42,303 nucleotides of DNA from Chloroflexota bacterium (GCA_041177405.1 JBEDBF010000001.1:1-42303), one strand, 5' to 3'; positions 30,801 through 42,303 are shown, counted from the first letter of the stretch. Notes: generated from the letters alone by a model not told the origin. Numbers and translations are program-made.

Positions 30801-31965
30801 CGTCACCGCCGTCGCCGTCGTGGTTACCCGCCGAGCGCGAGACGACAGTCGTGCCTTATTCGATCTGCAGCGTGTGAGTGATGCGGTCGCGTCCGGCGCA
30901 TCAGCACTCCTGGTCGGCGCAACACTTATTGCACTCCCGCTTGCGGTGTATCTCATCAGTTATCTCCCGTGGGCAGCGCTAGGCAATCAAATTGTTGAAG
31001 GGTGGCCGCCTGGCAACGACGGGAGAACGCTCGCCGACCTCACCACCTCCATGTACCAGTACCACGACACGCTTCGCGTCGCGCACGCCGCAAGCTCGCC
31101 GTGGTGGGCGTGGCCGTTTGACCTGAAGCCGGTCTGGTTCTTCCAGGAGAGCTTTGCGGCAATCGGCGGATGGAGCGGTGCAATCTACAACGGAGGAAAC
31201 GTGGCTTCGCGCGTCCTCGGCCTCGCCGCTGGCGCATGGCTTGTTCGCCAAGCCTGGACGCAGAAGAGCTGGGGCCTCGCAAGCATCGCGGTGCTCTTCT
31301 TTGCACTCTGGCTACCATGGGCACGCGTAGATCGCGCGGCATTTCAGTACCACTACTTCCCGTCGTCACAGATTGCGTTGATCGCGCTTGCACTCCTCCT
31401 TGCAGATCTTCGAAACGGAGCGACGCGTGCCGTTCGCATGGCACAACTTGGATTCGCCGCACTCATTCTGGCCGCACCACTTCTCTGGGCGACAACCCCG
31501 CTTCTATGCGCAGCCGCTGGAGTTCTTGACGTTTACCCTGAGAGCCACGTCTGTCTCTCTTCTGGGCTTGCAACACCAGGCCCGGTCGTTGGTGCGCTGC
31601 TCTTGATCCCCGCCGGATATGCGGCCTGGTCGCTACGCCATATCAGCGATCCGCGACGCCTCTTCCGCTGGTTGATCGCCACAATCGGACTCGTTGCGCT
31701 GATCTGGTATCCGAACTGGTCAGCACTCCCCTTGCCAACCGGAGTACACAACGCGTACCAGGGCCTTCTCCCAACGTGGACGTGGTCGTTCCAGTTCGGC
31801 GTGACACTCGAGAAGCCAGTTGACGTCCCGCTCGTGAGTGGAGCAACGTTTCTCTTTGCCGCGGCTCTCGCAGCAGTTGCGCTCCTTACGTATGCGTTAC
31901 TCGAGTACGCGCGGCGACGAGAACTCCACGAGGATCGCGCGAAGCGGAACTCCATCGGTCGCTAG
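27802..31965 (+). CDS. Giant polytopic GT-C glycosyltransferase: N-terminal GT-C module fused to a PMT (GT39)-like protein O-mannosyltransferase module with a large loop insertion
   Basis: The first ~430 aa form a multi-TM module with DLEAFRFWA ... FLDYLPGY (an ALG6/8- or DUF2029-like look). The PMT loop-1 signature RFHFDEVYH ... EYTHPHLAKY sits at 29209-29325. Further motifs are GFVQSRIGMNDAF and C-terminal SSPWWAWPFDLKPVWFF, plus many TM helices. Confidence 0.8.
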   Translation: MSTSLIIALAVALRMIIAYVLLPADAGFTADLEAFRFWAADLGANGPLGSYERGYFLDYLPGYLWILWPLGALSGALTGSFDPGALIKLPGILADGLLILVTVRLASELGASTRAQRVVALLLAFTPVVWLNSAVWGQVDAVGTSALIVAVTELIKGRTLRGAALAALAAVIKPQFGILIPLIAVIAVVRARRSGDAWSLPLVALTGTAVVSVIALPFGLTVIDVIQRVGTAAATYPYLSVNAWNLWALADSGGTGIILNGGWGSDTVPLFGFGPPALFVGTLLLVAAIAVAGWAARHDERTRTVAALALIAIAFFLLPTRVHERYLFPAVPLTLALAAAHPRWRIVAALTALVLIINTWGVLTLEYLQSPGIPDLGPITDALHSPTAIITAVCATTVAFAVAGHQLLQLPTGESRVVRRRAAPVRVIDETNSSSAAPRARLTRVDLWMLAVIAVTALSLRGWRVGEPTRFHFDEVYHVRTATEFMQHWRYGEPHAIYEYTHPHLAKYAIAGGLELFGAPRVDGGGTYGAPILAIASRQEGAQGAPRIWVATAAGIDVISSETRAIIARIDEPGVRALSVAGDGSLWGISARGEVLHAPGDAVEGAENNPLTRWDISVPTIHTVRGAGDVAFVATTSEVLRVERGAVTARADVDGVHAIETVRVDETSHLIVAGSTGLTLLKADDLSGAQRTAVTGGVVAIGVIDWFDEPRVYAAGRDEITAFTLRSDTEASRVASISISGASAIIVNNATRVVHAVAPTRAASSGAALWSIEPNGNAYFADTELRNPESQNPEPLMSSAVVGAVIDGSAELPDGGRGELITAWPNGEMVQVAVGDLSSGWRWPGVIAGAAAAALLALLARLLTERRDVAALTGLLALLDGAGFVQSRIGMNDAFLLAALLAAACAFVAWAQGRARGAAGGSLLLLAAGSALGLALASKWVALYGIGALGLIWLARSAWGRALAVVGLIGIGALLLPSALSVPADGGRLPNLPFLAVVTLVTAVAVVVTRRARDDSRALFDLQRVSDAVASGASALLVGATLIALPLAVYLISYLPWAALGNQIVEGWPPGNDGRTLADLTTSMYQYHDTLRVAHAASSPWWAWPFDLKPVWFFQESFAAIGGWSGAIYNGGNVASRVLGLAAGAWLVRQAWTQKSWGLASIAVLFFALWLPWARVDRAAFQYHYFPSSQIALIALALLLADLRNGATRAVRMAQLGFAALILAAPLLWATTPLLCAAAGVLDVYPESHVCLSSGLATPGPVVGALLLIPAGYAAWSLRHISDPRRLFRWLIATIGLVALIWYPNWSALPLPTGVHNAYQGLLPTWTWSFQFGVTLEKPVDVPLVSGATFLFAAALAAVALLTYALLEYARRRELHEDRAKRNSIGR

Positions 31966-32235
31966 GAGACGTTCAACCGCCGCAGGGAGCGCGACCGCCT
32001 CTCCAGAGGCGACACGTTGACGCTCATCTGCGAGTGCCAGCCACCCACCACCCTCAATGACGATCAAGAGCCCGTCATTCGGAGAGCGAAGTGGACCAAG
32101 CGCCGCGCGTTCGCTCAGTGCGATTTCTGTGATGTGTGCGCTTGCGCCAGCGTGTAGGAGCGCGCTTTCAACGCCGGTTGCTCCGGAGCCGCGATCGGGT
32201 CGACGCTGTCCTGGTCCGAAGCGGCGGATCTCCAC
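31897..32235 (-). CDS. Small cupin-fold protein
   Basis: 112 aa with a beta-rich pattern (HITEIALS ... GLLIVIEGGGWLALADERQRVASGEAVALPA) typical of single-domain cupins. It is downstream of and co-oriented with the 32246..32674 gene. The 3-prime end overlaps the convergent GT-C gene by 69 nt. Confidence 0.55.
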   Translation of the reverse strand: MEIRRFGPGQRRPDRGSGATGVESALLHAGASAHITEIALSERAALGPLRSPNDGLLIVIEGGGWLALADERQRVASGEAVALPAAVERLLATDGVPLRAILVEFSSPRVLE

Positions 32236-32245
32236 CGCGTTACGC

Positions 32246-32674
32246 TCAGCGCTTCTTACTGCCGCCGCGGCGATTCGGTCGCTTCAGAGTCGCTTCAACA
32301 CCGTCGCTCACCTGGCGTCGTGCCCGCAACATCTCCTCATGCGCCGCCTCAGCGGCAAGCTGCGGCGGGAAACGGTTAACGACCGTGTCGCGAAGGAGGT
32401 AGAGGCCAACGGCGGTAGTGATGATGGGGAAGAGGCCGTACCACTGGAATGCCGCGTAGACGAGGTTCAAGCCAAAGGTGCTCACGCCGATCCAGAGCAG
32501 ATACTCCCACTCGGTGCCGATCACTCCTCGCCCATGCGCGCCGCGCGTCGACCATGCGTAGGCGACGATGGTGAAGATGAAGAGGAGTAGGTTCACCACC
32601 CAGAACGGGGTGTAGAACGTGCCAAGCCGCGCATTCAGCGCGACGAAGAGATACTCCCAGGGCCACTGCGCCAT
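32246..32674 (-). CDS. Hypothetical membrane protein (about 4 TM helices, basic C-terminal tail)
   Basis: Hydrophobic segments FWVVNLLLFIFTIVAYAW, LLWIGVSTFGLNLVYAAF, GLFPIITTAVGLYLL. Tail KRPNRRGGSKKR. No family recognised. Confidence 0.6.
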   Translation of the reverse strand: MAQWPWEYLFVALNARLGTFYTPFWVVNLLLFIFTIVAYAWSTRGAHGRGVIGTEWEYLLWIGVSTFGLNLVYAAFQWYGLFPIITTAVGLYLLRDTVVNRFPPQLAAEAAHEEMLRARRQVSDGVEATLKRPNRRGGSKKR

Positions 32675-32747
32675 TCGGTTACCTCACTCGCAACTATTGA
32701 CCCGACAAGTGGTCGGCTCGTCAGGCGAGTATGCCATCATCGCCCTC

Positions 32748-34148
32748 ATGCGGGTCCTCCTCGTCGCCAGCCCAGCGCACCCAACGGTTGCACGGCTCAC
32801 GCCCACACTCGCCACCCTCGTCGCGCAAGGCTGCCGCATCGAGGCGCACCTCCCCCTCTCTGATGAGCTCACTCGTGAAGGGATCCCACACACAGGGCTC
32901 GACGACCCCGCGCTTGACGCTGCACTTCGCGGCCTCACCAGCGTCGATCTCCTTATTGCTCCGCTCGCGGCCGCCGCCGCCTTTGCCGGCGCCGCCGCCC
33001 TCGCCGCCACCGCACACGCCATCGGGAGAGGGGACGACGCACCACTTCTCCTGGTTGATGCGAACGACGCAGGGGATCTCGTTGGGTCGCTCGCCATGGC
33101 GCGCGACGGGGGGTCGGTCGGCGCGGCGGTTCGCGAACGACTGATGCAAAGTGCCGCCTTTGCGCTGGCCTCTGCACTCGCCCCGGTCGCTCACGGCGGC
33201 GACGAATTTCCTGAGCGACAACTCCTCCTCCTCGAACGAATGCGAACCTTTCAGCATGGCGAAAACCCACACCAGCGCGCTGCCGCATACCAGTACGCAT
33301 CACGAAACAGGGCCGGAGTGCTCGGCGCACGCCTTGTCCAGGGCAGTGAGCCAACACTGAACGACTTGTTGGACCTCGATGCTGGTGCGCGACTCGTTGC
33401 CGACCTGCCGATTCCAAGCGCCGCGCTCATCCGTCATACGGATCCAATCGGCGCGGCAACCGCTGAAACTCCGCTCGGAGCGCTGAAGCGCGCACTCGAG
33501 ACTGATCACACGGCAACATCAGGTGCAATCGTTGCGTTGAACACGCCAATCGATCGCGCAGTTGCAGTTGAGATTGCGAGCGGTAGCTACGAAGCGGCTG
33601 TCGCCCCTGGCGTTGCCGATGAGAGTGCCGCCTCTGCGCTTGCCGCGCGCCCAGAACTTCGCGTGCTGCTCTATGCACCAGAGCACCCACAAACCCCCGA
33701 ACTGATTGGGCTCGGCGACGCACTCTTAATGCAGACCCCAGACCACGGCGCCATTGAGCGCAGCGAGCTTCGTGTGGTGACGGAGCGCCGACCCACACTC
33801 GAAGAGCTCACCGATGCCCTCTTTGCCTGGCGAGTCGTACGCCATGTTCGCTCCAATGCAATTGTCGTGGCGCGAAACGCCAGCACGCTTGGCATCGGTG
33901 CCGCACAAGTGAATCGCCGCGTGGCAGTTGAGATTGCGTTGCAACGCGCGGGTGATCGTGCGCGCGGCGCGGTCATGGCGTCAGATGCGTACTTTCCATT
34001 CGCGGAAGGGATCGCCGCTGCCGCCGCCGCGGGCGTGACCGCAGTAGTGCAACCAGGCGGTTCGCGCCGGGATAACGCGGCGATTGAGATTGCAAATCGA
34101 AACGGGATGGCGATGCTGTTTACCGGGCGTCGCCACTACCGAAGGTAG
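32748..34148 (+). CDS. PurH-like protein: recognisable AICAR-transformylase-type C-terminal domain, degenerate MGS/IMP-cyclohydrolase-type N-terminal domain
   Basis: C-terminal matches to PurH: HGENPHQ, GIGAAQVNRR, ASDAYFPFAEG, VVQPGGSRRD, MLFTGRRHYRR. The N-terminal 150 aa lack the SVSDK, STGGT and DGRVKTLHP motifs. ATG 32748 is chosen because the track start 32619 overlaps the divergent gene. Confidence 0.75.
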   Translation: MRVLLVASPAHPTVARLTPTLATLVAQGCRIEAHLPLSDELTREGIPHTGLDDPALDAALRGLTSVDLLIAPLAAAAAFAGAAALAATAHAIGRGDDAPLLLVDANDAGDLVGSLAMARDGGSVGAAVRERLMQSAAFALASALAPVAHGGDEFPERQLLLLERMRTFQHGENPHQRAAAYQYASRNRAGVLGARLVQGSEPTLNDLLDLDAGARLVADLPIPSAALIRHTDPIGAATAETPLGALKRALETDHTATSGAIVALNTPIDRAVAVEIASGSYEAAVAPGVADESAASALAARPELRVLLYAPEHPQTPELIGLGDALLMQTPDHGAIERSELRVVTERRPTLEELTDALFAWRVVRHVRSNAIVVARNASTLGIGAAQVNRRVAVEIALQRAGDRARGAVMASDAYFPFAEGIAAAAAAGVTAVVQPGGSRRDNAAIEIANRNGMAMLFTGRRHYRR

Positions 34149-34153
34149 CGACA

Positions 34154-35332
34154 ATGGAAGAATCGCTCGCCGCGCGTATCGTTGCGGAGATCCGCGAGCG
34201 AGGACCAATCAGTTTTGCGCGATTCATGGAGCGCGCACTCACTGAGCCAGGTATCGGCTACTACGTTGGCCCGCATGCACGCGCAGGGCGAGAGGGTGAC
34301 TTCATTACCGCACCAGAGATGCACGGGATTCTCGGTTCAGCACTTGCACGGCTGTTTACCCAAACATGGGAGCGGCTCGATCGACCAACACCGTTTCGCT
34401 ATACCGAGTACGGCGCCGGATCTGGCACACTCGTCTGCGCCATCATCGATCAGCTCATCAGAGATACATCACCACTCCTTGAGGCGCTTGAGATCCAACT
34501 GATTGAAGTCAATGAACACCGCGTAGAAGAGTTGAAAGCTGCGGTGAGCGCACGTGCGCTCCGTCAGCCGCTGAACATCGTGCACGTTGATGCACCCCCG
34601 GTGGCGGGAGTTGTTGTGGCGAACGAATATCTCGACGCACTCCCGTTTCACATCTATGTGGGACGAGCAGCGACCGCCTGCGGCGTTGCAGAGCGTCGTG
34701 TTGGAGTCAACGAGCGCGGCGTACTTGATTGGGTGGAAGTGCCGCTGGACGAATCCGAAGCTGAGCGAGTGCGTCAGCGGTTTGGGGCACCACTCGCTGA
34801 AGGGCAACGCGCAGAGGCCTGCTTTGCTGCAGACAGATGGCCGTCCGAACTGGCGCAACGAATCAGTCATGGGCTTGTGGTGGTGATTGACTACGGCCGC
34901 GAAGGGGTTGAACTGCGTGACGCTGCGAGCCGCGCGGCCGGGACGGCACTTGCCTATCAGGGGCATCGGGCCACGGACGACCTCTTGGGGGACCCAGGGG
35001 GGCGCGACCTGACCGCCCACGTTGACTTGACCGCCCTGCGAGTCGCCGCCACCGCGGCGGGGCTCACCCCGATCGCCTCCACCAGCCAGGCGGCACTCCT
35101 CGCAGGGGCGGGCCTTGATGACGAAATCGAGCGGATCCGCCGAGGGCCAGAGGCGACCCTTGAGGGGGCGATCGCCCTTCGCGCGGCGCTTGCACGGCTG
35201 ATGAACCCCCGGAGCATGGGTGGCTTTGCCGTTGAGCTCTTCGCCCTCGGCTCGGCTGAGCACATTTCACGCCTCTCAGATGCGAGAAATCCGCTCCCTG
35301 GAGCGGCGGCTCCGATCCGCCCCCTCGTCTAG
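34154..35332 (+). CDS. Class I SAM-dependent methyltransferase of the DUF185 / MidA / NDUFAF7 family
   Basis: ISFARFMERALTEPGIGYY, GDFITAPEMHGILGSALA, EYGAGSGTL, ANEYLDALP, DLTAHVDLTAL match the family pattern. Confidence 0.8.
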   Translation: MEESLAARIVAEIRERGPISFARFMERALTEPGIGYYVGPHARAGREGDFITAPEMHGILGSALARLFTQTWERLDRPTPFRYTEYGAGSGTLVCAIIDQLIRDTSPLLEALEIQLIEVNEHRVEELKAAVSARALRQPLNIVHVDAPPVAGVVVANEYLDALPFHIYVGRAATACGVAERRVGVNERGVLDWVEVPLDESEAERVRQRFGAPLAEGQRAEACFAADRWPSELAQRISHGLVVVIDYGREGVELRDAASRAAGTALAYQGHRATDDLLGDPGGRDLTAHVDLTALRVAATAAGLTPIASTSQAALLAGAGLDDEIERIRRGPEATLEGAIALRAALARLMNPRSMGGFAVELFALGSAEHISRLSDARNPLPGAAAPIRPLV

Positions 35333-35404
35333 AATCCTCGAAGGATCCACCCTTCGCCCCGCACGGGGCGCAGCACGGGAGCAGGGGTCCAACAGAGGAG
35401 CTGC

Positions 35405-35761
35405 ATGAACGGACTCTGGTACGTCCTCGGCTTCGCCGGCGCGGGTGTCTCCTTCGTCTTTTTGACGATCGGGATCGCCTGGCTGATCTCCCACCGTACG
35501 CGCGGAAGCCGAGGGAAGCAGGTGCCATACGAGTCGGGCATCGACACGTACGGCGACACCCACGGCCGCTTCGGCCTCTCCTTCTATCTCTACGCACTTC
35601 TCTTCGTTGCGTTCGATGTTGAGATCGTCTTTATTTACATCTGGGCGCTCAACTTCCAAACGCTCCTCATCGAAGGCCTCGTCTCCATGGCGGTCTTTAT
35701 CGGCGTCTTGCTGATCGGGCTCGCATATGCGTGGCGAAAAGGGGTGCTCGCATGGCGATGA
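35405..35761 (+). CDS. nuoA: NADH-quinone oxidoreductase subunit A
   Basis: 3-TM protein with YESGID ... [19 protein letters not shown]. Confidence 0.9.
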
Positions 35762-36429
35762 CACGCGATCCAAAGAAGGCGTTGCAGGCTCCGATCGTCA
35801 CACCGAACACGCTCTGGACCACCGACGACCCGCGTGCATACGGTGGTCAGCCGCTCGCCGAACATCCGAACCTTGAGCTCGCGCGCTATGACGCCACTGG
35901 CGAAGGTCGCGTGGATGATGCGCGTTGGAGCGGAGCGCTTGGCGCGATCCCAACAAAGGCAGACATTGTGCTCGACCTAATCCGAGCAAACAGCCTCTGG
36001 CCACTTCTCTCCGGACTCGCATGTTGCGCGATCGAGATGATGTCAACCGCGACGCCAAAGAACGATATTGATCGCTGGGGGATGTTCCCCTTCCGCGCGT
36101 CGCCGCGACAGGCAGACGTGTTGATCGTCGCGGGAACACTGACAACAAAAATGGCGGAACCGCTCATTCGACTATGGGAGCAGATGCCAGAACCGAAGTG
36201 GGTTGTTGCAATGGGAGACTGCACCTGTTCAGGCGGTCGCTATAAGCGCAGCTACTCCGTGGTGCAAGGGATTGACCGCGTGATGCCCGTTGATGTCTAC
36301 ATCCCAGGATGTCCGCCACGACCAGAGGGCCTGATCTACGGAATGATGAAACTGCAGCAGCTGATTAAGGATCGTCGTGGACATTGGCCGGAGCGCGCAA
36401 TCGGCCCAACCGTTCCGGACGGAATCTAA
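35752..36429 (+). CDS. nuoB: NADH-quinone oxidoreductase subunit B (all four N2 cluster Cys present) with a long N-terminal extension
   Basis: [45 protein letters not shown]. The start is ATG 35752 or 35758, overlapping the nuoA stop. Confidence 0.9.
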
Positions 36430-36980
36430 TGGATCGCGCGCTCGCCACTGCACTCCAGGAGCGCTTCGGCAACACGCTTCTCGCCCCCGTTCGTCAACGA
36501 TTTGACGAGACGGAGATTCGCGTCAGCATTGCTGATGCAATCCCAACGCTGCGCGCGCTACATGATGAACCTGCATTCGCATATGAAATGCTGATTGACC
36601 TTTGTGGGGTAGATACCGGTGAAGAGATGCAGGTCGTGTATCACCTTTCGTCGTCTCAAAGTGGTGACTGGCTTCGCGTGATCGTCCCCGGTATTGACCG
36701 AAGTGCGCCGCGCGTGAACTCGCTCGTCTCACTCTGGCCAGGCGCCGAATGGATGGAGCGCGAGGCCTACGACATGTTCGGCATCATCTTCGAAGGGAAT
36801 CGCGACCTTCGTCGCATCTACATGCCAGATGATTATGTGAGCCACCCGCTCCGAAAAGATTTCTATCTTGCAGACGACGCGTCGCGGTCACCGGCCGCTG
36901 GCGTTCGCAACATGGAGCGCGTGGGAACGCCCGTTGATGCCACCCGCAGCACGGCACTACGCAAGAGTCCAGGGGCATAA
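36429..36980 (+). CDS. nuoC: NADH-quinone oxidoreductase subunit C
   Basis: LIDLCGVD, SLWPGAEWMEREAYDMFGIIFEGN, DLRRI, HPLRKDF. ATG overlaps the nuoB TAA (TAATG). Confidence 0.9.
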   Translation: MDRALATALQERFGNTLLAPVRQRFDETEIRVSIADAIPTLRALHDEPAFAYEMLIDLCGVDTGEEMQVVYHLSSSQSGDWLRVIVPGIDRSAPRVNSLVSLWPGAEWMEREAYDMFGIIFEGNRDLRRIYMPDDYVSHPLRKDFYLADDASRSPAAGVRNMERVGTPVDATRSTALRKSPGA

Positions 36981-36982
36981 GC

Positions 36983-38197
36983 GTGACCACACCCCTGACG
37001 AAACCATCACTTGACGATCCAAGGATTGCGATCCCCGCTGCCTCCGAGTGGTACGAGCCCGCACCCACGGCGCAGACGGAGCGACAGGCGGAGTTCCTGA
37101 ACCTTCGCGACGGCGAGATGTTCATCAATATGGGGCCGCAACACCCGTCCACACACGGGGTGCTTCGCATCGTCGTCAAGGTGAACGGCGAGCAGGTTGT
37201 TGACCTTGACCCCGTGCTCGGATACCTCCACCGCGGCGTAGAGAAGCTCTGCGAGAACGCCGACTACCACCAGGCGATCTGCTACACCGACCCACTCGAA
37301 TACGTGGCCTCGCTCTTCTGCGAAGCCGCACCCGTGGCCGCCTTCGAGAAGCTGATGGATGTCGACGTCCCGCGCCGCGCGCAGTACATCCGCGTCCTCA
37401 CCATGGAGCTGAATCGCATCGCCAGTCACACCCTCTTCCAGGGGTGGATGGCGCTCGATCTTGGTGGGATCACGCCGATCCTCTGGTCGTTCATTGAACG
37501 CGATGAGATCGTGGACATGCTCGCGGCTCTCACGGGGCAGAAACTGCTCTACAACTACTACCGCATTGGTGGCGTGAACGGCGACCTCAATCACGAATTC
37601 ATGAGCCGACTCGGCAACTGGATGAGCCGCGCCGCCGCGCAGATCGATTCAAACCTTGGGTTGATGAACGAGAACGAAATCTTCGTTCGACGCACGCGCG
37701 GTCTCGGCACGCTTGATGCGGCTACTGCGCTGCGCATGGGTGTCACTGGACCAAACCTGCGCGCCACCGGCGTGCCGTTTGATCTCCGCCGCGATCACCC
37801 ATATCTGGTGTATCCAGAGCTTGAGTTCAACGTGCCAACACGCCAAGAGGGTGACTCGCTTGCGCGCTACATGGTTCGGATTGACGAGATTCGCGAGTCC
37901 ATTCGCATCATTGATCAGGTGCTGCACGAAATGCCAGATGGTCCAGTGATGGCGAAACTCCCGCGCCTGATCCGACCACGACCAGGCCGCGCATTCGGCG
38001 CGGTAGAAGGGCCGCGTGGCGCGTACGGCGTGTACGCAATCTCTGATGGCACCGATCAACCGTTCCGGATGCGCATTCACGACCCATCGTTCGTTCACTT
38101 GCAACTGGTGGGTCCGCTCACGCGCGGCAATTTGATTGCAGACACCATGGCGGTGATGGCAAGCCTTGATCCTGTCATGGGTGGGGTGGACAAGTGA
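36983..38197 (+). CDS. nuoD: NADH-quinone oxidoreductase subunit D
   Basis: NMGPQHPSTHGVLR, LGYLHRGVEKL, ELNRIASH, EGPRGAYGVY, HDPSF, DPVMGGVDK. Confidence 0.93.
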   Translation: MTTPLTKPSLDDPRIAIPAASEWYEPAPTAQTERQAEFLNLRDGEMFINMGPQHPSTHGVLRIVVKVNGEQVVDLDPVLGYLHRGVEKLCENADYHQAICYTDPLEYVASLFCEAAPVAAFEKLMDVDVPRRAQYIRVLTMELNRIASHTLFQGWMALDLGGITPILWSFIERDEIVDMLAALTGQKLLYNYYRIGGVNGDLNHEFMSRLGNWMSRAAAQIDSNLGLMNENEIFVRRTRGLGTLDAATALRMGVTGPNLRATGVPFDLRRDHPYLVYPELEFNVPTRQEGDSLARYMVRIDEIRESIRIIDQVLHEMPDGPVMAKLPRLIRPRPGRAFGAVEGPRGAYGVYAISDGTDQPFRMRIHDPSFVHLQLVGPLTRGNLIADTMAVMASLDPVMGGVDK

Positions 38198-39541: not shown

Positions 39542-40363
39542 ATGGCACGAATCCCAGGCTCAGGCATCGTCCGCGGAATGGCCCTGACGCTCACGCGCTT
39601 CTTCCAGCCGAAGAAGACGGTGATGTACCCCGAAGTGAAGCCAGACATTCCGCCGCGCAACCGTGGTCGCTTGGAACTGGTGACCGACGAGCGTGGCACG
39701 CTGAAGTGCGAAACCTGTTTCCAGTGCGCGCAGGCGTGCCCAATTGAGTGCATTGACATGGGCGGAACAGATACCAAGGGAAGGTACGCCGTCCACTGGG
39801 GGCCGGCGGAGCAGTACGCCGAGCGCCGCGAAGAGTCGGCGATGCGTCGCTCCGGACGAACCGTCTCCGACGCTGCGGCAGCACAAGAGAGCAGTGTTGA
39901 CCTTCGACCCGTTGAAGCGGCGTTGGAACGCGTTGACTACGACCCGCATCACATGTTGCAGATCCTTGAGTCAGTACAGCGCGCGTACGGATATCTGCCG
40001 GTTGATGCATTGAAGCGCATCAGTCGCGCCACTGGCGCCTGGTACGCCATGGTCTATGGCACCGCAACCTTCTATAAACACCTCACGTTTGAGCCGGGAC
40101 GCAATCGCACGATCGCGGTCTGCCGTTGTGCAAACTGCTTGGTTGCCGGCGCAGGGCGCGTGATCAACACGCTCTCGTTCGAATTTGGAACAGAGTTCGG
40201 ACAGGCGATCCCGTGGAGCAACCTGCGGCTCGAAGCCCTCCCAACACACCTTCCTGACGCCCCATCGCCGCTCGTGGTGATTGACGGCGAACCACAGCGC
40301 GAGCTCTCAAGTCGCAATGCCGAGTCGTGGGCCGCCGCGCTTGCGGGGAGGTACGCCGCGTGA
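39542..40363 (+). CDS. nuoI: Fusion protein: N-terminal half of NuoI (single 4Fe-4S motif) joined to a NuoE-like thioredoxin-fold domain with an incomplete 2Fe-2S ligand set
   Basis: NuoI part: KKTVMYPE, RNRGRLEL, CETCFQCAQACPIEC (39707-39751). NuoE-like part: LQILESVQRAYGYLP, VYGTATFY, IAVCRCANC (40121-40138). SD AGGAGGG precedes ATG 39542. Confidence 0.8.
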   Translation: MARIPGSGIVRGMALTLTRFFQPKKTVMYPEVKPDIPPRNRGRLELVTDERGTLKCETCFQCAQACPIECIDMGGTDTKGRYAVHWGPAEQYAERREESAMRRSGRTVSDAAAAQESSVDLRPVEAALERVDYDPHHMLQILESVQRAYGYLPVDALKRISRATGAWYAMVYGTATFYKHLTFEPGRNRTIAVCRCANCLVAGAGRVINTLSFEFGTEFGQAIPWSNLRLEALPTHLPDAPSPLVVIDGEPQRELSSRNAESWAAALAGRYAA

Positions 40364-41622
40364 AGCAACTGAGCGCACCAAAGGGATGGTCACAGATCCT
40401 CATGACGCCACCGGCAACGCCGTGGAGCGCGCTGCGCGCTGCGCTCGCCGCTGGTGGCGCGGCAACCGCGCAGACACTCATTGATGCCGGCCTGCGCGGA
40501 CGCGGCGGTGGGGGTTTCTTGACCGGTGAGAAGTGGCGTGCAGCTGCGCAGAGCGACGCGTCGCCGAAATACGCGGTGGCAAACGCATACGAGTCAGACC
40601 CAGCCGTCTTCACGAACCGTCTCCTTCTTGAAAAGAATGCACTCGGAGTCATTGAGGGCCTCGCGATCGCCGCACTCAGTGTTGGCGCGCGTGAAGCGAT
40701 GATTGGCGTGCGCGCGGAGTACAGCGACGCAATCCGTTCGCTTGAAGTGACCATCACCACCGCAGAGCGCGAAGGCGTTCTCGGGGCCAACGTGCTCGGA
40801 AGCGGTCGCGAGCTCACCGTGCGCGTCATCCCACTTCAAGGCTCAAGCATGATCGGTGAAGAGACGGTGCTGCTCAAGGCGCTTGCAGGAAAACGCGGTC
40901 AGCCAGAGCAGACGCCGCCGTATCCATCGGAAGTTGGCTATCTCGGCAAGCCGACCGTGGTGAACAACGTGGCAACACTCGCCGCCGTCTCTTGGATCCT
41001 TGCCAACGGCGCCGCTGCATTCAAGCAGATTGGCGACCCAGCGCAGCCTGGAACCATGCTCGTTCAGGTGAGCGGCTCGATCACTAACTCCGGCGTCCTC
41101 GAAGTTCCGACAGGAACCCCACTCGCGGAGATCCTCGCAGTGGCGGGAGGCCCCGCACGCGGAGCCACGATCAAGGCGCTTCTTGTTGGCGGCCCATCGG
41201 GCGGATTTGTTCCTGCGCAGCTGTTGGCAAGTACGCCGTATAGCGGCGCCGGACTCGCCGCGGTTGGCGCGCACATTGGTTCGGGCGCGCTGCTTGCCCT
41301 CGACGGGAGCGCATCAATTCCTGAGCTCGCCGCCATGTTGACGCGCTGGTGTGCCGACGAAGCCTGCGGAAAAACAATTCCATGCCGCATCGGCACCCGT
41401 CGCCTTGCTGAGATTGGGCAACGCTTTGTCGACGGTCTCGCTGGCCCGCAAGACGGCGAGCGACTCCAGGCGCTCGCGGCAGATGTTGCAGATAGCGCGC
41501 TCTGCGCGCATGAGCGGCTCACGCCAAGCCCACTCCTGACGGGGATGCGATACTTCAAACACGAGTTTTATCCGGCCAACGTCGCGCAGCCAAGCGGCGC
41601 AGTAGCAGGACGGAGTACGTAG
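40360..41622 (+). CDS. NuoF (51-kDa subunit)-like protein with divergent cofactor motifs
   Basis: GLRGRGGGGFLTGEKW, IGEETVLLKALAGKRGQP, PPYPSEVGYLGKPTVVNNVAT, EACGKTIPCRIG. GTG 40360 forms a GTGA overlap with the upstream stop. Confidence 0.8.
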   Translation: MKQLSAPKGWSQILMTPPATPWSALRAALAAGGAATAQTLIDAGLRGRGGGGFLTGEKWRAAAQSDASPKYAVANAYESDPAVFTNRLLLEKNALGVIEGLAIAALSVGAREAMIGVRAEYSDAIRSLEVTITTAEREGVLGANVLGSGRELTVRVIPLQGSSMIGEETVLLKALAGKRGQPEQTPPYPSEVGYLGKPTVVNNVATLAAVSWILANGAAAFKQIGDPAQPGTMLVQVSGSITNSGVLEVPTGTPLAEILAVAGGPARGATIKALLVGGPSGGFVPAQLLASTPYSGAGLAAVGAHIGSGALLALDGSASIPELAAMLTRWCADEACGKTIPCRIGTRRLAEIGQRFVDGLAGPQDGERLQALAADVADSALCAHERLTPSPLLTGMRYFKHEFYPANVAQPSGAVAGRST

Positions 41623-42303
41623 ATGGCAGGCCTCATGGAGCGACCAACGAGTGGTGTGACACCAGTTGATGCCACCGCGGTGCAGACCACCTCAGAGAGC
41701 CAAGCGGTTGAGCAGATGCTCTCCACGCGCAGCCCACAACGCCCGCAGCGCACCCCAACCTTCTATGTAGAGATTGACGGGAGGCAGCTCGAGGCGTTTG
41801 AGGGACAGACAATCCTCGAAGTCTGCCGCGCAAATGGCATTGAAGTCCCAACGCTCTGCTACGACCCGAAACTTCCTGGATTCGGCGCATGCCGCATGTG
41901 TGTGGTCGACGTTGACGGGTGTGACTCACCGCAGATCAGCTGTTCGGCAAAGGCGGAACCCGCAGCGGTCATTGCCACACAGACCGATCGGCTGCGTGAG
42001 ATTCGTCGCACCAACCTGGAGTTGATCTTTAGCGACCACAACGCGTACTGTCTGCCGCCGTGCCAAAACAAGTGCCCGAGCCACATCGACATTCCAGGTT
42101 TCTTGAAGGCGAACGCCGAGTCGCAGTTCCGCGAGTCGGCGCGCATCTTCAAGCGCACCATCCCGTTCCCAAGCATCCTCGGTCGCGTCTGCCCAGCACC
42201 TTGTGAAGACCACTGCCGTCGTGACGAAGTTGACGAAGCGATCGCGATCCGCGACAGCCACCGCTACGCAGGCGACCAGGTGCTCAAGTCAATGTGGGAC
42301 GAG
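41623..42303 (+). CDS. Partial CDS (3-prime end outside the window): NuoG-type N-terminal 2Fe-2S domain fused to a GltD (glutamate synthase small subunit)-like Fe-S/NAD(P)H oxidoreductase domain
   Basis: Not in the ORF track because it has no stop. I translated it by hand from ATG 41623 (TAGATG with the nuoF-like stop): FYVEIDGRQLEAFEGQTILEVC ... LCYDPKLPGFGACRMCVVDVDGCDSPQISC (C-x10-C-x2-C-x13-C), then CLPPCQNKCPSHIDIPGFLKANAESQFRESARIFKRTIPFPSILGRVCPAPCEDHCRR ... IAIRDSHRYAGD. The second part parallels the GltD N-terminal Fe-S region. The frame stays open to the last base. Confidence 0.8.
   Translation, partial: MAGLMERPTSGVTPVDATAVQTTSESQAVEQMLSTRSPQRPQRTPTFYVEIDGRQLEAFEGQTILEVCRANGIEVPTLCYDPKLPGFGACRMCVVDVDGCDSPQISCSAKAEPAAVIATQTDRLREIRRTNLELIFSDHNAYCLPPCQNKCPSHIDIPGFLKANAESQFRESARIFKRTIPFPSILGRVCPAPCEDHCRRDEVDEAIAIRDSHRYAGDQVLKSMWDE

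Follow-up and report, generated by a model that had tools for sequence, protein, structure and literature searches.

The locus described here lies in a window of 42,303 nucleotides, which is the whole stretch of DNA analyzed. It belongs to the genome of a freshwater Candidatus Limnocylindrus (Chloroflexota, Limnocylindria, Limnocylindrales), which comprises 1.07 Mb, is 88% complete and has a G+C content of 62.5%. The gene under study, midA, encodes a protein of the MidA/NDUFAF7 methyltransferase family. It is preceded by a purH-like paralogue and followed by nuoA, with all three genes on the same strand (Table 1). The stop codon of the purH-like gene is separated from the ATG of midA by only 5 nt, and both genes are probably co-transcribed. 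On the other side, the spacer between the end of midA and the ATG of nuoA measures 72 nt. Downstream of nuoA the genes nuoB, nuoC, nuoD and nuoH follow on the same strand, and then non-canonical genes. An earlier reading of the sequence alone (the sequence-only reading) had described a 392-aa ORF with the motifs GDFITAPE and EYGAGSGTL, located on the strand of nuoA and ending 72 nt short of this gene. Both motifs were located in midA, and the distance and orientation were found as given there.

Table 1. Coordinates of the features at the midA-nuo locus, counted from the first nucleotide of the window
Feature	Position	Strand	Evidence or remark
purH-like paralogue	32619..34148	+	Pfam AICARFT_IMPCHas E=3e-59; below NCBIfam equivalog cut-offs
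Shine-Dalgarno-like GAAGG of midA	34141..34145	+	abuts stop codon of the purH-like gene; read from sequence
midA, 392-aa SAM-dependent methyltransferase, MidA/NDUFAF7 family (PF02636, COG1565)	34154..35332	+	Pfam E=4.6e-44
GDFITAPE family motif, residues 48-55 of MidA	34295..34318	+	D49 and T52 invariant in alignment
SAM-binding motif I EYGAGSGTL, residues 85-93 of MidA	34406..34432	+	family alignment
Putative nuo promoter inside the 3'-end of midA	35300..35335	+	-10 hexamer TAGAAT at 35330-35335
GC hairpin CGCCCC-GCAC-GGGGCG, no U-tract	35355..35370	+	midA-nuoA spacer
Shine-Dalgarno GAGGAG of nuoA	35395..35400	+	read from sequence
nuoA	35405..35761	+	Pfam Oxidored_q4 E=1.8e-31
nuoB	35731..36429	+	cluster N2 Cys ligands C98, C99, C164 and C194 present
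nuoC	36384..36980	+	profile searches (Pfam, NCBIfam)
nuoD, predicted substrate subunit	36983..38197	+	NF004739 419.5 bits, cut-off 360
NuoD Arg84 codon (YLHRGVEK, HRGxE motif)	37232..37234	+	equivalent of bovine NDUFS2 Arg-85; predicted methylation site

Several details of the surrounding genes may be added. With the GTG start as annotated, nuoB and nuoA share 31 nt; the true start of nuoB may instead be an ATG located a few codons further on (MAMTRD). After nuoH, at 39542-42303, the canonical gene order is replaced by a fusion of NuoI-like and NuoE-like parts, then a gene of NuoF type and one 2Fe-2S/GltD-like gene. Upstream of midA, purH-like genes are also found in relatives across the order, at distances of 0-5 kb.

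Family and fold of MidA and the predicted target arginine in NuoD

The ORF matched the Pfam family PF02636 (Methyltransf_28, formerly DUF185) with 151.2 bits at a cut-off of 23.3 (E=4.6e-44), and the match extends over profile positions 2-245 of 249. None of the NCBIfam models matched this ORF. In a PDB search with the single sequence, the COG1565/DUF185 protein of Burkholderia thailandensis (4F3N/4G67) was found with E=2e-34, the DUF185 protein of Rhodopseudomonas palustris (1ZKD) with E=8e-27, and MidA of Dictyostelium discoideum (5ZTZ) with E=6e-18 over the N-terminal part only. A profile built from 62 homologous sequences, which represent many phyla, could be aligned to 5ZTZ over the full length (E=8.6e-55). 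The AlphaFold2 model of the protein (pLDDT 95.1, pTM 0.93) comprises the seven-beta-strand core of SAM-dependent methyltransferases as well as the N- and C-terminal parts of the family, and thus corresponds to the full-length MidA fold. In a Foldseek search it was superimposed on 4G67 with a TM-score of 0.82 and on 5ZTZ with 0.81, as compared to at most 0.38 for all methyltransferases outside the family. SAM motif I is present as E85-Y-G87-A-G89-S-G91; in the alignment of the 62 sequences E85 and G87 are invariant, and G89 and G91 nearly so. Further positions that are invariant in this alignment (D49, T52, N157, E158, D161, D246, Y247, G282 and D285) or nearly invariant (G248) are all retained in the protein described here. 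Judged by the profile match, the fold model, the superposition and the motif residues, the ORF codes for a true MidA-fold enzyme and can be placed in this family securely. The proposal of the sequence-only reading that a MidA/NDUFAF7-type methyltransferase is encoded upstream of nuoA is borne out: along its whole length the protein is homologous, in sequence as well as fold, to 5ZTZ and the bacterial COG1565 structures.

In human and Dictyostelium, NDUFAF7/MidA is an arginine methyltransferase and assembly factor of complex I (PMC3829151, PMC9006661). The function of bacterial MidA proteins has so far been derived in silico only (PMC12455994, PMC9006661). Our protein shares PF02636, the SAM motif and the fold with the eukaryotic proteins (structures 5ZTZ, 5ZU0 and 5ZZW), and the arginine known as their substrate, in the HRGxE motif of NDUFS2, is conserved in the neighboring NuoD. 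Sequence identity is low (about 21%), however, and the bacterial protein has no targeting peptide. A further difference is that midA adjoins the genes of the presumed substrate complex, and its activity is a predicted one. The nearest solved relative is not a mitochondrial-type MidA but the protein of B. thailandensis. This protein and that of R. palustris, to which the TM-score is 0.74-0.75, are structural-genomics entries to which no substrate has been assigned.

In the bovine enzyme, the 49-kDa subunit carries a symmetric dimethylation on Arg-85, with a glycine as the next residue (Carroll et al. 2013, PMC3750175). Arg-85 corresponds to Thr64 in Nqo4 of T. thermophilus (Rhein et al., PMC3829151), and the methylated arginine has been described as that of the HRGxE motif, 3.7 A distant from the iron-sulfur cluster N2 (Hameedi et al., PMC8042128). 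The alignment offsets of NuoD, which are +1 to the mature bovine chain and -20 to the Thermus chain, identify bovine Arg-85 with R84 in the sequence YLHRGVEK. The sequence-only reading had noted the conserved segment HGVLR in NuoD, which was found at residues 58-62, and had placed the methylated arginine in this segment. The latter assignment has to be corrected, since the arginine of HGVLR is R62, equivalent to bovine R63, and both the literature and the offsets point to R84 in HRGxE. NuoD is encoded by a single copy in this genome, with one match. As a side note, NuoB carries the sequence FRASPRQ, and in mammals this segment of the PSST subunit bears a hydroxylated arginine (PMC3750175).

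Dimethylation of the HRGxE arginine beyond mitochondria is known from Paracoccus denitrificans, where the residue of Nqo4 equivalent to R84 is symmetrically dimethylated (Carroll et al. 2013, PMC3750175). In the literature searched, this is the sole bacterial complex I for which such a dimethylation has been shown, and neither an experimentally identified enzyme nor a linkage to nuo genes is given for this organism. Unlike our Chloroflexota host, Paracoccus is an alphaproteobacterium and belongs to the lineage of mitochondria. In E. coli the equivalent arginine is unmodified (PMC3750175).

The presence of the HRGxE arginine in NuoD is a weak test of a substrate relationship, because this residue is also kept in relatives that have no MidA. 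These are the Chloroflexota family f3, in which none of 16 genomes matched MidA and the arginine was checked in four, and the genome G031 of one Limnocylindrales genus. The arginine as a correlate of MidA was therefore discarded as uninformative. Its retention in these relatives and its unmodified state in E. coli imply that the presence of the arginine does not predict methylation. Evidently, the modification is dispensable in some lineages and cannot be essential for every complex I.

Linkage of midA to complex I genes

Adjacency of midA and nuoA in related genomes had been named by the sequence-only reading as a test of its proposed link to complex I. Comparison with 24 other genomes of the genus yielded 22 informative loci, i.e. 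loci with sequence present downstream of midA, and all of these 22 have the order midA-nuoA-nuoB-nuoC on one strand. In the sister family, all 11 loci retrieved have midA 0.2-2 kb upstream of nuoA, with both genes in the same orientation. The same relative position was found in 17 out of 18 named contigs of the Limnocylindrales clade. Hence, the adjacency is kept within the genus, and the relative position in the sister family and the order. A loss of midA was observed in G031, a genome which is 95% complete: the gap between purH and nuoA is 2.2 kb long, NuoD retains the HRGxE arginine, and the ORFs in this gap (L177:6865-9115) showed neither a Pfam match nor similarity to MidA.

In some genomes of the sister family, genes have been inserted between midA and nuoA (L035:7785-8627; L042:7379-8485). 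They encode either an HTH_37/HTH_3 protein or an orphan protein of 368 aa, and the start of the orphan ORF overlaps the stop codon of midA. These genes were considered as partners of midA and rejected, since one HTH protein and one orphan ORF provide no consistent pattern.

At 45 Chloroflexota loci outside the order, which represent about 30 families, no nuo gene was located within about 6 kb of midA. Looser arrangements were found in two Chloroflexota families. In one of them (f4, also seen in locus L138) a second nuo-like cluster is followed by midA after approximately 3 kb, and in the other (f13, also L168) midA is divergently oriented at a distance of 2-3 kb from nuoA. The second cluster was also noted for its composition. 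In other Limnocylindria it is a divergent nuoB-nuoD-(nuoI/E-like)-nuoF-like cluster, beyond which midA is located on the same strand at a distance of about 3 kb downstream (L043:131-3123, L044:10682-14001, L138:1546-5322), and its NuoD is about 44% identical to the NuoD described here.

In a survey of the neighborhood of DUF185 genes, as had been suggested along with the sequence-only reading, 62 loci from outside the Limnocylindrales were retrieved via conserved MidA motifs, and 11 of these carry complex I genes within 8 kb of midA. Nitrospirota contributed two loci with midA next to nuoA, and in a wider sample of this phylum the pair was found in 9 out of 30. In cyanobacteria, ndhH adjoins midA in 6 out of 7 loci of the motif-based survey, three of which have only 42-66 nt between the two genes, and in a wider sample ndhH was located at most 1.3 kb upstream of midA in 11 out of 30. 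In a tree of 133 MidA sequences, which comprises neither alphaproteobacterial nor eukaryotic ones, the genes linked to complex I fall into at least five separate clades. Thus, the linkage arose repeatedly and in different forms. In the literature searched, in which the structure and origin of MidA are incompletely covered, we found no description of a midA-nuo or an ndhH-midA linkage. Nothing relevant was found there on methylation of NdhH in cyanobacteria or on complex I of Limnocylindria.

The distribution of MidA was determined in a sample of 401 Chloroflexota genomes. It was found in 179 out of 382 genomes with NuoD, as compared to 1 out of 19 genomes without NuoD (Fisher p=2e-4, kinship ignored). 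The single exception is a metagenome-assembled genome of 74% completeness. Among 14 control genomes, PF02636 was detected only in Caulobacter, Synechococcus and Haloferax, all of which are NuoD-positive, and E. coli lacks it. These patterns of distribution and linkage fit an enzyme that is dedicated to complex I. The link to complex I suggested in the sequence-only reading is supported by the conserved adjacency in the order and by its recurrence in Nitrospirota and, beside ndhH, in cyanobacteria. From the perspective of comparative genomics, the predicted functional link of midA to complex I is well supported.

Putative nuo promoter at the 3'-end of midA

The stop codon of midA (TAG, 35330-35332) forms the first half of the hexamer TAGAAT. 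Within the genus, where MidA identity falls to 57%, this hexamer is invariant and its distance to the ATG of nuoA is 75 nt in all but two genomes. In the sister family, almost all genomes carry an extended -10 box of the type cTGnTAGAATg 75-142 nt ahead of nuoA, with TAGACT, TAGGAT and TACGAT as variants of the hexamer. Here, the box is kept near nuoA even if the end of midA is hundreds of bases distant or a further gene lies in between. Therefore, the box belongs to nuoA and not to midA.

A sigma-70 consensus scan of the region 31800-36500 did not identify a promoter. Since this consensus does not model the promoters of the lineage, genome-wide statistics of TAGAAT were used instead. Of 41 copies of the hexamer in the genome, 15 are located 5-200 nt upstream of an ORF start on the same strand, as compared to 9.3% for permuted hexamers, which corresponds to an approximately 4-fold enrichment. 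The geometry of leaderless mRNAs, with 5-9 nt between hexamer and start codon, was found for 8 copies. These positions point to frequent use of leaderless mRNAs in the host and to TAGAAT(C) as its -10 consensus. The eight sites, given as contig and position in this genome, are C63:7394(-), C3:18239(-), C8:7093(+), C13:15124(-), C24:4400(-), C32:9990(-), C99:1029(+) and C77:3651(+).

Nowhere in the region is conservation higher than in the final 30 nt of midA, where pairwise identity is 0.90-0.93. Identity at third codon positions is 0.78 in the last 14 codons of midA versus 0.50 upstream thereof, which fits a constraint at the DNA level overlying the coding sequence. Together with the occurrence of a -10-like TAGAAT upstream of nuoA across the order, this is the pattern that would be expected of a promoter, and the nuo genes probably have one of their own with TAGAAT as -10 element. 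Its -10 box would contain the stop codon of midA, and its upstream half would reside within the last approximately 30 nt of the gene. Transcription would start at about position 35342 and produce a leader of approximately 62 nt, with the GC hairpin near its 5'-end.

The sequence-only reading had pointed out this hairpin in the spacer and the lack of a T-tract, and had regarded read-through into nuoA as plausible. The hairpin was found as described and is not followed by a run of T residues, and a terminator scan of the region 31800-36500 detected none in the midA-nuoA spacer. Read-through from midA into nuoA is possible because no terminator is present; its expected contribution is reduced by the conserved -10-like TAGAAT overlapping the stop codon of midA. 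As for a riboswitch or attenuator in the 72-nt leader region, no claim is made. Folding of a 101-nt region around the spacer was no better than that of shuffled sequences (z = -0.45). RNAalifold applied to 15 sequences of the genus returned only a consensus hairpin of 3 bp without covariation, with the CCCC/GGGG stem kept, and a search of the leader against Rfam gave no match at E<=1.

An alternative view of these data is that midA is the first gene of the nuo operon, that a transcript starting at midA or at the purH-like gene continues into nuoA, and that TAGAAT is no promoter element. The shared strand, the short spacer devoid of terminator-like sites and T-tracts, and the negative sigma-70 scan would all agree with this. 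It does not account for boxes of the TAGAAT type upstream of nuoA across the order, which are present even where midA is 0.2-2 kb away, for the enrichment of the hexamer just upstream of ORF starts including the eight copies at leaderless distance, or for the unusual degree to which the 14 terminal codons of midA are conserved at their synonymous sites. We therefore regard a common midA-nuo operon of this kind as quite improbable.

Proposed role of MidA in the maturation of complex I

From the family, the fold, the conserved target arginine, the gene order throughout the order and the independent linkages described above, we infer both the substrate and the chemistry of the enzyme. MidA would be a SAM-dependent protein arginine methyltransferase, the most likely job of which is dimethylation of Arg84 in NuoD. 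The modification is expected to take place before NuoD joins NuoB. In the assembled complex Arg84 of the HRGxE motif would adjoin cluster N2, for which the ligands in NuoB are intact. Dimethylation would thus belong to the maturation of the quinone module, as it does for complex I of mitochondria and Paracoccus. With midA presumably transcribed along with the upstream purH-like gene, a separate nuo promoter may allow the enzyme to be made in catalytic amounts and the structural genes to be expressed strongly, and some read-through may occur. Based on sequence comparison, structural modeling and analogy, we consider it fairly likely, with clear reservations, that this MidA-type methyltransferase dimethylates NuoD Arg84 and that nuo is expressed from its own promoter overlapping the end of midA.

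The protein may have a genuine MidA fold and act on another substrate, be it a different protein, a different residue or a small molecule; the position next to nuoA would then be an inherited gene order without functional meaning. Such an explanation is in line with the separation of midA from nuo in most Chloroflexota families, with the retention of the NuoD arginine in the MidA-less f3 and G031, and with the nearest solved homologues 4F3N and 1ZKD being without assigned function. It is less easily reconciled with a complex I linkage that recurs in at least five MidA clades in varied arrangements, among them the cyanobacterial pairing with ndhH, with the near confinement of MidA to NuoD-positive genomes, and with the retention of midA in a streamlined genome of 1.07 Mb. 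On balance, it appears unlikely. It has also been proposed for MidA of Wolbachia that the protein is a global regulator acting on DNA or on DNA-binding proteins, as its expression in E. coli resulted in adenine and cytosine methylation of DNA (PMC12455994). For the protein studied here this would be very surprising: the locus shows no restriction-modification or DNA-binding context, the genes to which midA is recurrently linked are those of complex I, and the fold agrees, from end to end, with that of the protein arginine methyltransferase MidA.

If dimethylation of NuoD is indeed the function of this gene, the annotation 'SAM-dependent methyltransferase (DUF185)' can be replaced by a specific and testable prediction. 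Limnocylindrus has kept midA in a streamlined genome of 1.1 Mb, packed so tightly that its stop codon would be part of the nuo promoter, and this would imply that the modification is of importance even where the electron-input module of complex I is non-canonical.

In a broader sense, MidA-type enzymes may have dimethylated the N2-proximal arginine of NuoD or NdhH since early times, as a maturation step common among bacteria and extending beyond mitochondria and alphaproteobacteria; we hold the arguments for this generalization to be evenly balanced. It would imply that the step operates in Chloroflexota, in Nitrospirota and in the photosynthetic NDH-1 of cyanobacteria. In mitochondria the role of the dimethylated arginine is hard to separate from assembly defects. 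The recurrent linkage across phyla provides comparative support for these enzymes serving complex I. The ndhH-midA pairs of cyanobacteria are the clearest case, because these lineages include genetically tractable strains. A variation of this pairing was observed in a member of the Chroococcidiopsidaceae (L151:5449-7941), where two tandem ndhH genes are located directly upstream of midA. The product of the midA-proximal copy has HGCFR instead of HGVLR/HGVMR and keeps the sequence LHRGMEK.
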